Assembly: GCA_013331805.1 (NCBI GenBank)
Contig: DUFS01000005.1
Span: forward strand, 1-14,422
Direction of reading: 5' to 3'
Source of the DNA: Candidatus Micrarchaeota archaeon
GTDB lineage: Archaea > Micrarchaeota > Micrarchaeia > Anstonellales > Anstonellaceae
DNA: 14,422 bases
Shown: positions 1-3,000 of the stretch, piece by piece
Layout of the letters: each line of letters starts with the position of its first letter
Position numbering within the stretch: position 1 is the stretch's first letter
Made by a program: the position numbers

Positions 1-3000
1 GCCCCGACCGGGATTCGAACCCGGGTCGCCAGATTGACAATCTGGAATGCTAACCACTACACCATCGAGGCATGCGCAACCTGCCGCAGCAGTTGCGCAG
101 ACAGGGGAACCGCAGTTCCCCTGGATCGGAAGATGCCGCAGCATCTTACGGGCGTTTCTGGAATGGAAATGTCCCGCCAGTGTGATTTGTCCGGCTGATT
201 TTTATGGGTTTTCTTTTGAACCCCGGGGCCTTTTCTTTTTGAAAAGAAAAGGGGCCATTGAACACACAACATCTTGATAACTGCCGGCACAATCGCCGAC
301 CGCTGAGACTTTCGATGAACCGTTTTGCGAGCATCAACTCTTCCGCAGGCAAAATGGTTCTTCTACAGCCAAGCGCTCTACCAGGTTGAGCTATGGCGGG
401 AATTTATGTCCTGAAAGGTAGCTAAGCCTTCAGGAGCGAAGAGAGATATCATCAACGATTTTAAATTCGTTCGCTTTGGGAAGAGCAAATTTCCTAGGAA
501 AAAATCAGTTCCTGAGCCAAACGTGTTGATGGTCTGTTTCAAGAGGGAATCGGAGGCCGTAAGAGACTTTAATCGTGTGGCGGTCATACCCCTGCCGCAA
601 GCTCGCGGGATTTGCCAGGTTGGCAGGCAGACGCACAGCGCGGGATTTCCCCATTATTCTGCGAGCCATTTCCACAAAGGCATGAATTTGACTTTGCCTT
701 TGATTCCGAACCACTCGATTTCCTCCACCGCTTCGTAATCCGCAGTGAGCACAAGCAAATTCCCGCATTCCAGTTCCGCCGAAGCCTTGAGCAGCGCCCG
801 AACCTCGCGTTCGCGGACTTTTTGCCTTGCCATATCGAAGCATACCTGGATGAGTTGGCTCACCTTGCGGTCCTTGTAGATGACGAAATCCACTTCCTCG
901 TTCTGGGCATTGCGCCAGTAAAAGAACCTGAAGCCGCCCTGCGATTCCAGGCATTTCAAGCGGATGGCAACCGCATTCTCATAGCGCCGGCCTCGGTCCT
1001 GGCTTAGTTGGAACGCCTTGGCGGAAACCAGCCCGTTGTCAATGCAGTATATTTTCTTGTTTTCGCCCGCCTGCCCGCGCATCTTGTAGGAAAAACGGCT
1101 GAGGGTGAAGAACAGGTAGGCTTCCTGGAGATAGCCCATGTAGCGCTGGACGGTGTGGACGCTCCTGCAATGGCCAATCTCCGAAAGTGAGGTGTATGAG
1201 AATTCCATGGCCGTGTTGGAAAGTAGATACTGAGACAAATCAACAATGCCCTGCGGGCTGCGGATTTTATAGCGGCGCAGGATGTCCTTGTAGATTACAG
1301 AGTCGAACAGGGTGGAGAGGTATTCTTTCCTATCTATATTCTTGACCAATGGCTCGGGATAGCCGCCCTGCTCCAGGTATTCTTCCAGCTTCTGGCGCTT
1401 CTCGTTATTCGTGAGTTCGGTAGATGAAGTGGCTTTCAGGTATTCGGGGAACGAGAAGGGGAAAAGAACAACCGAGGTGTGCCTTCCGGTGAGGTGGGTG
1501 GCCAGCTCCCGGCTCAAGAGGTGCGCGTTGCTGCCTGTGATGAAGAGGTTGTAGCCTTGGCGCGAGAGGCGGTTGGCGAACAGCTCCCACTTGGGCAGGT
1601 TCTGGATTTCGTCCAAGAGCAGGATTTTCGGATTATTATGGACTGAATCTACAGCAGCCAGAAGCTCGTCGTAATCGGTTAGGTCCGCCAGCCTCTCATC
1701 GTCGAAATTGACGTAGCCCAAGTCCTTGAAGCCCGAAAGCTGGTGGATGGCGAAGAAGGATTTGCCGACCCTTCTTGGGCCTATGATGACCTTGACCAGG
1801 TTGCTGTCCTGCTGCCGAAGCTGCGCTTGGCGCGGAATGTACCGCTCGGCGAGGCGCTTCTTCAATTCGCGTTTCTGTAAGATAAGGACATCCCGGAGCA
1901 TTATTTCACCGATGTATTATAATGCATAAAAGTTTATAATATTGTGCATTATAAAAATTGAATTGCACCAGGAATTTGGGAAAAAGTACATGGCAGGACG
2001 TATCCACCAGTAAGGTTGAGCTATGGCGGGACAGGTGTACATTATCCTCAAAATGTTTATAAGAGGTGATTTTTGCCCGGCCAGCAGAGCCCTGCATTAT
2101 GTACAAAAATGTTCATTTATGTACAGTCTTATATATTTGCCCGCCCAGAAACAATCCGCAAGGAACGGTGAATGGAAATGGAAAAGAGAAAGCTTTATGC
2201 GCTGGTCGGCCTGCTCATGGACGAAAGGCTGAGCGTGAGGGAGGCTGCGGACGTGATAGGCGTGTCGCACATGACTGCCTACCGCGCGCTCCAGAATTCG
2301 GAAACTTGAAGGCCATATGCATGGCAAGCGAACAGACAAAAATATTGCTTATTGTAAACGACGTCCCAGGAACCTCTGCGACATGCTTCCAGATTTTACG
2401 CCTCAGCTGAGCCCTGCTGAAGGGCACATGGACAGGAAGATTCTGGGAAAATCAGTCCACCCTGAGCACCATGTCCGAAACCACCGTGGAGGCGCCGTCT
2501 GAGAGCACCACCTGTATGCTGAAGGTGCCCTTCTCAAGCGCTGCCCCGGAGATAAGCCCATTGTTGGACATTGAAAGTCCAAGCGGGAACCCGGTGGCGG
2601 ACCAATAGTAGCTGCCAGTGCCCCCTTCTGCTTCGAGCGCAAAGCTATACTTGGCATCCTGCACCGCACTGGCGAGCTGCTGCGTGCTGATGGAAAGAGA
2701 AGCCCCTCCCCCGGCAGCCTGGTTGCCGCCTCCTCCTGTTTCATTGCCATTGCCCCCGTTCCAGCCGGTCTGGTTCGAACTGCCCGTGTCGTTTCCGGAG
2801 GAGGAGTAAAGCACCAGGTAGGTGACTGTGATTTCCCCCCTGCACTGCGCGATGTCGGCCCCGCATCCCCTGGGAGGCATCACGATGGTGTTCTGCGACT
2901 CGCCAGGCTTTAGCGTGAGGGTGAGCTCCCCCGCGCTTCCTGATGAGATTGCAATGCTCTTGTTTTCGTTGTTTCTGACAGTCACCTGTATGCCTCCGGT

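Follow-up and report, generated by a model that had tools for sequence, protein, structure and literature searches.

A tRNA-Tyr(GUA) gene with two predicted introns and the repeat families of tRNA introns in a Micrarchaeota genome

Structure of the tRNA-Tyr locus

Does a locus at which the common search tools find no tRNA encode a working tRNA-Tyr, and where do the sequences that interrupt it come from? We analyzed this question in a stretch of 14,422 nucleotides (contig DUFS01000005.1, positions 1 to 14,422, in the following called the window) from the genome of a Candidatus Micrarchaeota archaeon (GCA_013331805.1). The organism was described as a tiny groundwater archaeon, and its genome is 91.5% complete and consists of 83 contigs. 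An earlier note on this genome had described a tRNA-Tyr(GTA) gene with two introns of 84 and 71 nt, and the sequence at 400-172 on the reverse strand, with A172 as discriminator, matches this description. The tRNA-Tyr(GTA) gene consists of three exons of 38, 21 and 15 nt. As best explanation of all observations, to which we assign a probability of roughly 0.88, the locus is a working tRNA-Tyr(GUA) gene, which is transcribed as one precursor and contains two protein-spliced introns from mobile repeat families. The features of the window are the following:

363-400, reverse strand: exon 1 of tRNA-Tyr (38 nt), comprising the acceptor 5' strand, the D arm, the anticodon stem 5' strand and the anticodon loop to G37
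366-364, reverse strand: anticodon GTA of tRNA-Tyr, within exon 1, as given by ARAGORN after in-silico splicing
279-362, reverse strand: predicted intron 1 of tRNA-Tyr (84 nt) at the canonical position 37/38; ARAGORN gives an 84-nt intron
258-278, reverse strand: exon 2 of tRNA-Tyr (21 nt), comprising A38, the anticodon stem 3' strand, the variable loop, the T stem 5' strand and T54-A58 of the T-loop
187-257, reverse strand: predicted intron 2 of tRNA-Tyr (71 nt) in the T-loop, between 58 and 59
172-186, reverse strand: exon 3 of tRNA-Tyr (15 nt), comprising A59-T60 of the T-loop, the T stem 3' strand, the acceptor 3' strand and the discriminator A
209-256, reverse strand: copy of the family P repeat in intron 2 (nhmmer E=6e-11) with a three-part pattern
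1-71, reverse strand: intron-free tRNA-Asp(GTC), truncated at the contig end (Rfam 60 bits; ARAGORN)

ARAGORN found no tRNA in the unspliced Tyr gene, whether the intron option was on or off, and none of the 23 Rfam RF00005 matches in the genome (E<=10) is located here. When the T-loop insert is deleted in silico, ARAGORN reports a tRNA-Tyr(gta) with an 84-nt intron, and the fully spliced 74-mer is recognized as a cloverleaf with stems of 7/4/5/5 bp. Archaeal tyrosyl-tRNA synthetases use the C1-G72 pair and the discriminator A as identity set. Both can be read from the sequence (C1-G72, A73) together with the anticodon GUA. A second Tyr gene was not found in this genome by ARAGORN, by a scan for split T-loops or by Rfam. 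Metagenome contigs from four runs in four different studies agree with the locus over the parts that they cover (0 differences); one single contig covers 209-609 and another one 1-258. The 415-aa open reading frame which adjoins the Tyr gene (654-1901) had tblastn matches in 0 of 23 related loci.

tRNA genes of the genome

Intron-free tRNA genes are a minority in this genome, as had been proposed before. They account for 8 of the 34 genes listed, and about 26 of the 34 (~76% of those listed) are interrupted. The earlier counts were reproduced: 19 genes for ARAGORN with introns and, at E<=10, 23 RF00005 matches, of which 16 exceed the cut-off. The number of 10 intron-free genes has to be lowered: ARAGORN without introns reports 9, and Leu-GAG contains a T-loop intron, so that 8 remain. 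All five genes that had been described with two introns were recovered by our independent split-T-loop scan. It yielded 4000 raw candidates, which resulted in 12 entries accepted by ARAGORN at 11 distinct loci. As a control, the same scan was applied to the reversed genome and led from 4348 raw candidates to 1 locus. Three of the 11 loci are alternative parses of ordinary genes and were rejected: C37:6925-7103 holds a Thr-TGT gene whose only intron has 107 nt, C55:9488-9618 a Phe gene that likewise has just one intron, and C46:8808-8962 an intron-free Gln gene, for which a copy of its own 3' end is found 82 nt downstream. T-loop cuts in this genome were assigned to 56/57, 58/59 and 59/60. For Thr-CGT, the automatic motif search gave central, outer and inner helices of 4, 5 and 2, in agreement with the earlier hBHBh' reading; this search mis-parsed several genes with anticodon introns and was used for Thr-CGT only.

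Standard finders see about half of the tRNA genes of this genome and misname several of them. For genomes of this kind, codon-usage and completeness estimates will therefore be wrong if the search leaves out split T-loops and D arms.

Orthologous Tyr genes in related genomes

Among 24 related loci that were fetched, 20 were parsed as Tyr genes and counted. The other four (L045, L047, L048 and L049) are from other families and gave no parse as a Tyr gene. The exons are near-invariant across the 20 related Micrarchaeota genomes, and compensatory changes occur in the D, anticodon and acceptor stems (pairs 10-25, 28-42 and 6-67). An anticodon intron of 27-122 nt occurs in all 20 genomes. Its 3' module is conserved, and its 5' part takes inserts of <10 to ~100 nt. 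A T-loop intron of 37-148 nt, unrelated in sequence and length, is found in 17 of the 20. The T-loop insert is absent from the other three (G009, G016 and G023), in which the predicted spliced junction is read exactly. G022, G006 and G017 agree fully in the exons and in the 35-nt intron 1, and their T-loop introns of 73, 81 and 40 nt differ from end to end (38-74% identity).

Predicted splice motifs and splicing enzymes

The 3' module of intron 1 consists of a hairpin (arms 298-295 and 288-285) and the strand GCAG (284-281), which pairs with C32-T35 of exon 1 (368-365). The variable 5' part is located in an enlarged 5' bulge. A central helix of 4/4 and an outer helix of 5 bp were found in 12 of 12 genes, and the 4-bp hairpin abutting the central helix, with compensatory changes, in 19 of 20. 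In the strict register, the inner helix is absent in 11 of 12 genes. Intron 1 would thus be recognized by a relaxed bulge-helix-bulge motif, in which a 3-nt bulge with the 3' cut separates the 5-bp anticodon stem from the 4-bp helix of C32-U35 and GCAG. The conserved intron hairpin would stack on top, and the 5' cut would be located two nucleotides beyond the central helix, inside the enlarged bulge.

In intron 2, GGAC (192-189) pairs with G53-C56 (263-260), a central helix of 4/4, and GGC (256-254) with GCC (195-193), an inner helix of 3 bp. The central helix of the predicted motif would consist of the universal G53-U54-U55-C56 and the intron strand GGAC; a 3-nt 5' bulge and the inner helix would both be entirely intronic. 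The same intron could work in any T-loop, because the splice helix uses only exon letters which are common to all tRNAs. The T-loop as a landing site would explain why near-identical introns occur in the T-loops of unrelated tRNAs in this genome. Among the 17 orthologues with a T-loop intron, the central helix is complete (4/4) in 16, formed by five different intron strands, and an inner helix of at least 2 bp is present in 12. Arbitrary cut pairs, tested in the first 12 of these genes, reach the same standard in 0.39% of cases. No outer helix is seen in the strict register in any of the 17 orthologues, and the central helix requires G53 to give up its T-stem pair. The T-loop can be cut at several equivalent positions, of which 58/59 was selected solely for the best motif score.

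Neither of the two Tyr introns has the strict 3-4-3 bulge-helix-bulge, and both show relaxed forms only. Unconstrained minimum-energy folds contain the T-loop helix in 11 of 17 orthologues and the intron 1 helix in only 2 of 20; in the fold of the present gene, the central helix of neither intron appears.

The EndA protein of this genome matches the structure of the ARMAN-2 epsilon2 endonuclease (4fz2/9w2k) with E=2.4e-94 over residues 4-282, and PF01974 (splicing endonuclease) with 65 bits. A match to EndA was found in 24 of 26 genomes, and the open frames of the relatives comprise 383-481 aa. An NN in the assembly truncates the EndA gene of this genome after 290 aa, so that a third unit is not seen in it. 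The RtcB ligase (PF01139) was identified with 490 bits. By these matches, the genome encodes both an ARMAN-2-type epsilon2 endonuclease for relaxed motifs and the RtcB ligase. The Tyr gene would be transcribed as a single 229-nt precursor, the epsilon2-type endonuclease would cut both motifs and RtcB would join the exons. We infer this splicing from sequence. The ARMAN-2 endonuclease was already purified and crystallised, and in-vitro cleavage tests are therefore possible. Hirata et al. (2012; PMC3488258) are said to have dealt with the disrupted tRNA genes and the epsilon2 splicing endonuclease of ARMAN-2.

Other functions of the inserts were also considered. A self-splicing group I or group II intron does not fit, since Rfam gave no match in 172-400 of the window at E<=10, hence no group I or II ribozyme core was recognized, and 71 and 84 nt are too short. 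That the introns contain a C/D-box or H/ACA guide RNA was rejected as well; a box C motif is missing, and the splice helix accounts for the terminal ACA.

Intron families and repeat modules

Related introns in T-loops and anticodon loops of tRNAs that are themselves unrelated, as claimed before, are borne out by intron alignments and nhmmer searches. They do not form the single family that had been assumed, but at least four, of which family P, which contains the marker hairpin CCCCTTTTCTTT..AAAGAAAAGGG, and family B are the most relevant here. This hairpin does occur in tRNA introns, but it is a separable repeat module which is also found outside of them. The T-loop introns of Lys-TTT and Leu-GAG are identical at 76 of 78 positions in an alignment over 79 nt, from the first to the last letter and with the strands of the splice motif included. 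The same Lys-TTT intron shares 62 of 75 positions with the anticodon intron of a Ser gene, and the anticodon introns of Ser and Gly-TCC agree at 48 of 53 positions. The Gly-TCC intron matches the Tyr T-loop intron of a related genome (G010) at 55 of 61. A Val gene carries another family B copy in its D arm (nhmmer E=1.7e-16). Intron families are common to T-loop, anticodon and D-loop sites. In a local-alignment control with shuffled sequences, up to 41 matches were obtained (mean 11.6), a high number because the sequences are low in complexity. Near-identical introns in different tRNA types and positions of one genome are the pattern by which transposed intron families of the Thermoproteales type are recognized, and the introns listed above show this pattern.

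In the family P copy of Tyr intron 2, the pyrimidine arm (254-241) is followed by a purine arm, a G+C linker and, at 217-209, a purine tail. Since its nhmmer profile was built from 7 introns of this genome, including the Tyr copy, the E-value of 6e-11 is not independent. A three-part pattern was found in 25 of 27 family P copies, for which the mirror relation of the third strand to the purine arm fits better in 10, the direct one in 5 and both equally in 10. The repeat is present in introns of seven tRNA genes of this genome, at several positions. The summed contig depth at the Tyr copy is ~480-520, compared to 6-8 in its flanks (two metagenome runs). Look-alikes are present in many related genomes. 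Of 20 loci sampled in relatives, 9 have the hairpin in a tRNA intron, 2 have it immediately behind a tRNA gene and 9 have it in intergenic DNA, and several of the intergenic loci are close behind the ends of open frames (L014, L015, L021 and L032). Family B is found in this genome directly behind the stop codons of open frames of 565 and 542 aa. The T-loop intron of Glu-CTC matches that of Gly-TCC but does not contain the palindrome, which is therefore separable.

The insert in intron 2 contains T4-C-T4 runs on both strands, and an A+T-rich stretch is located ~20 nt upstream of exon 3. Runs like T4-C-T4 could stop transcription in some archaea. Family P as a transcription terminator was rejected; it is internal in seven single-copy tRNA genes.

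The intron bodies are copies from families of small structured repeats which have further members outside tRNA genes, and these bodies are quickly gained, lost and replaced. How they spread can be deduced from these comparisons with less certainty. Tentatively, small structured repeat families, one of which has a three-part make-up as in a triple helix, may make and exchange tRNA introns and settle also behind stop codons and tRNA genes, with the T-loop as a universal landing pad. The repeated 3' end downstream of the Gln gene would then be a possible first step of intron arrival. If this exchange takes place, the genus provides a natural series to follow the arrival of archaeal tRNA introns stepwise, from the empty site and varied occupants behind identical flanks to near-identical copies in unrelated tRNAs and the Gln 3'-end repeat. 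The genus makes the question of intron arrival approachable by comparative genomics, because it shows near-identical introns in unrelated tRNAs, an orthologous site at which close relatives have either no intron or unrelated ones, and family copies outside tRNA genes.

Alternative explanations

It is conceivable, though we consider it rather doubtful, that the repeats are independent modules (the P hairpin with its purine tail, the B element and nested tetraloop hairpins) which insert into any tolerant DNA, be it intergenic or a pre-existing intron. Introns would then not copy themselves between tRNAs, and shared hairpins would say little on their arrival. The positions of family P behind tRNA genes (2/20) and in intergenic regions (9/20) of relatives and of family B behind two stop codons fit this explanation, as do the Glu-CTC intron that lacks the palindrome of its Gly-TCC counterpart and the Tyr intron 1 that keeps its 3' module while the 5' part takes inserts of different size. 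However, the otherwise unrelated Lys-TTT and Leu-GAG genes have whole introns in common, with the strands of the splice motif (76/78). Moreover, the T-loop introns of G022, G006 and G017 differ over their entire length behind identical exons and an identical intron 1, and the T-loop site can be empty, as in the three genes without a T-loop intron.

A quite different situation would be a Tyr gene that is expressed in pieces, similar to a split tRNA: the T-rich repeat would end a first transcript, an internal promoter would drive the 15-nt 3' exon and both parts would be joined in trans. The T4-C-T4 runs on both strands of the repeat, its position at gene ends in relatives (behind tRNA genes and, at several intergenic loci, behind open frames) and the A+T-rich stretch before exon 3 agree with this. 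Yet this stretch is too near to exon 3 and leaves no room for the strand that pairs with G53-C56, and family P is found in introns of seven tRNA genes at several positions, whose splice motifs form in cis. Known split tRNAs are characterized by halves that come from separate loci and carry long complementary leaders, and the Tyr gene differs from them. Expression in pieces is thus very improbable. Even less credit can be given to a decayed tRNA-Tyr pseudogene which was invaded by repeats, with the working gene in the unassembled 8.5%. A genome of 91.5% completeness in 83 contigs would allow for it, the inserts are repeat copies, and the splice helices are missing from the minimum-energy folds of this gene. 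Against decay, the exons are near-invariant with only compensatory pair changes in 20 genomes, whereas the inserts vary freely, and almost every copy retains the base pairs that make up the two splice motifs. Also, no second Tyr gene was found in this genome by ARAGORN, the split-T-loop scan or Rfam, and in the relatives only loci matching the present gene were covered.

Comparison with known systems

The comparisons given here refer to parts of the cited papers. The kind of gene layout is already known in Micrarchaeota. The claim of the earlier note that such a spread of tRNA introns is new for this group was too strong, as heavily interrupted tRNAs with T-loop introns were already described for ARMAN-2 (Candidatus Micrarchaeum acidiphilum), in which 56% of the tRNA genes are interrupted and the non-canonical sites include 59/60 and 53/54 of the T-loop (Fujishima et al., 2011; PMC3239211). 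The epsilon2 splicing endonuclease of ARMAN-2 was described by Miyata et al. (2025; PMC12397907). ARMAN-2 belongs to the same phylum, and EndA matches its structure. In both organisms most tRNA genes are interrupted, some of them by several introns and at non-canonical sites including the T-loop, the bulge-helix-bulge motifs are relaxed and genes are missed by standard finders. In contrast to ARMAN-2, the lineage here is another one, with relatives named Anstonellaceae or Micrarchaeia, the interrupted fraction is ~76% of the listed genes compared to 56%, and T-loop cuts at 56/57 and 58/59 occur besides 59/60. Intron families common to several tRNAs are not reported in the sections of PMC3239211 considered here, which cite intron transposition for Thermoproteales only.

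In Thermoproteales, tRNA genes with several introns and intron transposition were described by Sugahara et al. (2008) and Fujishima et al. (2010), as cited in PMC3239211, PMC4390854 and bioRxiv 10.64898/2026.10.13.758758. Common features are closely related introns in different tRNA types and positions of one genome, an endonuclease of broad specificity and a high fraction of interrupted tRNA genes. Thermoproteales belong to another phylum, and their endonuclease is of the (alpha-beta)2 type, whereas it is epsilon2 here. Furthermore, the intron families described here have copies outside tRNA genes, and one orthologous site holds unrelated introns or none among congeners.

Family P resembles the intrastrand triplex repeats of bacteria (Holder et al., 2015; PMC4666352) in its pyrimidine arm, complementary purine arm and purine tail, and in its abundance at fast-rearranging loci. 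It differs in being archaeal, A/T-rich and located within introns of tRNA genes. For family P, a mirror relation between tail and arm is only partly supported, and the triplex is putative.

A preprint on Asgard archaea from 2026 likewise deals with hidden introns missed by standard annotators, repeated gains and sites with splice motifs. Only 1.5% of its 1,062 inserts are in families of at least 80% identity, with almost no copying between tRNA types, and the route of intron arrival is left open in the parts considered here. In contrast, several intron families common to different tRNA types are plain in the one genome analyzed in this study.

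Structure of the tRNA-Tyr gene

The features discussed in the window are the following.

1-71: tRNA-Asp
72-163: spacer between tRNA-Asp and tRNA-Tyr, three near-perfect hairpins
400-172, minus strand: tRNA-Tyr(GTA), 84-nt intron at 37/38 and 71-nt T-loop intron at 58/59
654-1901, minus strand: open frame of 415 aa
10331-10440, minus strand: tRNA-Trp(CCA), 37-nt anticodon intron

With default settings ARAGORN found no tRNA in the window, and Rfam at E<=10 gave only two matches, tRNA-Asp and tRNA-Trp. The 5' part of the tRNA-Tyr gene consists of an acceptor strand of 7 nt, TA, a D arm of 4 bp, an anticodon stem of 5 bp and the loop CTGTAG, followed by the 84-nt insert. 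The gene continues with A, the 3' half of the anticodon stem, a variable loop of 5 nt, the 5' strand of the T stem and TTCAA. After the 71-nt insert it ends with AT, the 3' strands of the T stem and the acceptor stem and the discriminator A. The inserts were cut from the file sequence by script and ARAGORN was run with introns allowed. Neither the intact gene nor the gene lacking only its anticodon insert was called; removal of the T-loop insert resulted in a call of tRNA-Tyr(gta) with an 84-nt intron, and the spliced form of 74 nt was called too. The two introns described for this gene in the earlier note are confirmed.

Contigs in three metagenome runs join window positions 72 and 163 with a single letter between them. 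They skip the 90 letters in between, and the hairpin array is therefore an insertion/deletion difference among close relatives. None of the 23 related Tyr loci contains a match to the neighbouring 415-aa frame; the surroundings of the gene are thus not conserved. The tRNA-Trp(CCA) intron was detected by both Rfam and ARAGORN; at its canonical cut, strict motif scoring gives only 2 of 4 central-helix pairs.

Conservation in related genomes

Used as a DNA query, window 150-420 had matches in 33 of 41 genomes, counting its own, and in 20 of 22 relatives of the same genus. Among 24 fetched loci, 20 were parsed as Tyr genes (18 from the own genus, including the window's own, one from a second genus and one from another family); the four unparsed loci belong to other families. 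The exons are near-invariant and changes come as compensatory pairs, at 10-25 (G-C to A-T), 28-42 (T-A, C-G or G-C) and 6-67 (C-G to G-C). All 20 genes carry the anticodon intron (27-122 nt) and 17 carry the T-loop intron (37-148 nt). The remaining three (G009, G016 and G023) lack it, and their T arm is identical to the junction expected from splicing of the other genes.

The exons and the 35-nt intron 1 are identical in G022, G006 and G017, while their T-loop introns (73, 81 and 40 nt) are only 38-74% identical. The 27 gene pairs with intron 1 at least 90% identical show T-loop intron identities of 0.24-0.74. Turnover at the T-loop site is thus far faster than in the rest of the gene. In four metagenome runs, from four studies, there are contigs that match parts of the locus without a difference (e.g., 209-609 and 1-258); one of the four runs may have supplied the window itself. 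In other metagenome contigs parts of either intron are replaced.

Splice motifs

Cut pairs were scored for the standard geometry of two 3-nt bulges, cut after the second letter of each, with a 4-bp helix between them. The T-loop introns of the Tyr genes form all pairs of the central helix G53-T54-T55-C56 in 16 of 17 cases, with five different intron strands (GGAC, GAAC, GAAT, GGGC and, with one mismatch, GAAA). An inner helix of at least 2 bp is present in 12 of 17, and an outer helix in register in none of the 17. When cut pairs are placed arbitrarily in the first 12 of these genes, only 0.39% have both a full central helix and 2 bp or more of inner helix. Intron 1 shows the central helix (CTGT with GCAG) and a 5-bp outer helix in 12 of 12 genes; the inner helix in strict register is missing in 11 of these. 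A 4-bp hairpin abuts the central helix in 19 of 20 genes and shows compensatory changes (CGGC/GCCG, CAGC/GCTG, CGAC/GTCG, CAGA/TCTG). It replaces the strict-register inner helix, so that the predicted 5' cut falls in an enlarged bulge, which is also the site of length variation and repeat inserts. Unconstrained minimum-energy folds speak against this motif reading, however: the intron-1 helix appears for 2 of 20 genes, the T-loop helix for 11 of 17, and the window's own gene has neither in its fold.

tRNA genes of the genome

For an independent scan we required a T stem of 5 bp in which no more than one G-U pair was tolerated, a TTCRANN loop split anywhere by 12-260 nt, an acceptor stem of 7 bp and acceptance of the T-spliced sequence by ARAGORN over its whole length. 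The genome yielded 4000 raw candidates and 12 accepted entries at 11 distinct loci; the reversed, uncomplemented genome yielded 4348 and one locus. All five double-intron genes of the earlier note (Tyr, Lys-TTT, Lys-CTT, C57 and C11) were recovered. Three of the 11 loci were set aside as alternative parses of ordinary genes. The previous counts were reproduced for ARAGORN with introns (19 genes) and Rfam RF00005 (23 matches at E<=10, 16 over cut-off), whereas ARAGORN without introns gave 9 genes instead of the 10 reported as intron-free.

Classes of the 34 tRNA genes listed from ARAGORN, the split-T-loop scan and inspection (C numbers are contigs of the genome)
Intron-free (8): His, Arg-CCG, Ala-CGC, Gly-CCC, Gln-TTG, Arg-TCG, Ala-GGC, Asp-GTC
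Single anticodon intron (8): Thr-CGT (C12), Ser (C14), Gly-GCC (C20), Thr-TGT and Ser (C37), Met (C44), Phe (C55), Trp (C71)
T-loop intron only (2): Leu-GAG, Leu-TAG
Anticodon and T-loop introns (8): Tyr, Lys-TTT, Lys-CTT, C57, C11:18617, Ser-CGA, Gly-TCC, Leu-TAA
D-arm insert, parsed by eye only (8): Val (3x), Gln-CTG, Asn, Ile-GAT, Arg-CCT, Glu-CTC
T-loop cut at 56/57: Leu-TAG, C11:18617
T-loop cut at 58/59: Tyr, Lys-TTT, Leu-GAG, Ser-CGA
T-loop cut at 59/60: C57, Gly-TCC, Glu-CTC, Lys-CTT

Strict splice motifs at 59/60 were found for Gly-TCC and Glu-CTC. As parsed by eye only, Glu-CTC has three inserts (D arm, anticodon and T loop), and the three Val genes (C62, C50 and C9) all appear interrupted at one D-arm place. 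Two interrupted genes adjoin on the minus strand of C50:1290-1800, the 3' part of tRNA-Val(CAC) with a D-arm insert and tRNA-Glu(CTC), again by eye only. Several ARAGORN calls are wrong: it missed the intron of Leu-GAG and took Lys-TTT for a 'Stop', Ser-CGA for Pro and Thr-TGT for Ser. Its C81 call looks false. The last 15 nt of the tRNA-Gln(TTG) gene (C46:8808-8962) recur without change 82 nt downstream, and tetraloop hairpins make up the stretch between. The gene can be parsed as intron-free or with an 82-nt T-loop intron; the repeat may be the footprint of an integration or the beginning of a T-loop intron.

Intron families and repeats

The earlier note had proposed a single intron family, marked by a hairpin, that spread among unrelated tRNAs. 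This interpretation is partly supported: the two-intron Tyr gene and families common to unrelated tRNAs stand, a single family and an intron-specific hairpin do not. Alignment of the inserts revealed at least four families.

Intron families
P: T-loop introns of Tyr, Lys-TTT, Leu-GAG, Gly-TCC and Ser-CGA; anticodon introns of a Ser and Gly-GCC
B: anticodon introns of Ser, Gly-TCC, Leu-TAA, Arg-CCT and C11:18617; D arm of Val-GAC; Tyr T-loop in five related genomes
C: T-loop of C57; Tyr T-loop in three relatives
D: common to the two Thr genes

Identity is 76/78 between the T-loop introns of Lys-TTT and Leu-GAG, 62/75 between the Lys-TTT T-loop and a Ser anticodon intron, 55/61 between the Gly-TCC anticodon intron and the Tyr T-loop intron of G010, and 52/64 between the T-loop introns of C57 and of Tyr in G008; shuffled controls gave a mean of 11.6 and a maximum of 41 matches. 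In family P a pyrimidine arm and a purine arm are combined with a small G+C hairpin and a purine tail. In the own genome all seven nhmmer matches with E<1e-10 are its seven introns, from which the profile was built. Of 27 copies, 25 show the three-part pattern of arms and tail. The tail fits the purine arm as a mirror better than as a repeat in 10 of them, less well in 5 and just as well in the other 10, which suggests a triplex-type repeat without being decisive.

The marker element was placed at 20 matching loci in other genomes of the order. Nine lie inside tRNA genes (six by ARAGORN, three by eye), two 1-2 nt behind tRNA genes and nine in intergenic DNA, several of these (L014, L015, L021 and L032) 1-30 nt from open-frame ends. 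The marker hairpin is thus not specific to introns. The T-loop intron of Glu-CTC matches that of Gly-TCC but has no palindrome, which makes the palindrome a separable module. In two metagenome runs the summed contig depth rises from 6-8 in the flanks to about 480-520 over window 201-240. Family B also occurs outside tRNA genes of the own genome, with copies directly behind the TAG stop codons of two long frames.

C5:958-1012: family B copy after a 565-aa frame
C46:8615-8787: family B copy after a 542-aa frame

Four nested perfect hairpins with tetraloops, like those in the long introns, enlarge the second of these copies. The 565-aa frame ends in a Gly/Met-rich tail.

Published cases and splicing enzymes

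According to the ARMAN-2 report (Fujishima et al., 2011, PMC3239211), 56% of 43 tRNA genes are disrupted, T-loop introns lie at 59/60 and at 53/54 plus 59/60, and relaxed splice motifs are cut by an epsilon2 enzyme. On this account the kind of gene is already published, and the Tyr gene adds a case from another lineage. A literature search on tRNA introns in Micrarchaeota and DPANN, covering part of the journals, found no account of shared intron families or extra-tRNA copies in the phylum.

The own genome has one PF01974 match, in a frame (C69:15255-16127, equal to L013:889-1761) that stops at 290 aa just past NN in the assembly. It matches the ARMAN-2 epsilon2 endonuclease (PDB 4fz2, 9w2k; 395 aa) with E=2.4e-94 over residues 4-282; in this assembly no third epsilon unit is seen. 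In relatives the open frames are 383-481 aa long, with a match in 24 of 26 genomes searched. Proteins 75-88% identical come from records titled Candidatus Micrarchaeota, Micrarchaeia or Anstonellaceae. Proteins 41-46% identical over almost the whole length (L098-L123) stand in records titled Candidatus Aenigmatarchaeota and, in one case, Nanoarchaeota, so that enzymes of the ARMAN-2 type may also occur outside Micrarchaeota. RtcB is also present. Its two match pieces (profile positions 1-50 and 44-426, about 1.4 kb apart) lie in one 960-aa open frame (C72:27-2753, minus strand), and the interruption looks like an intein.
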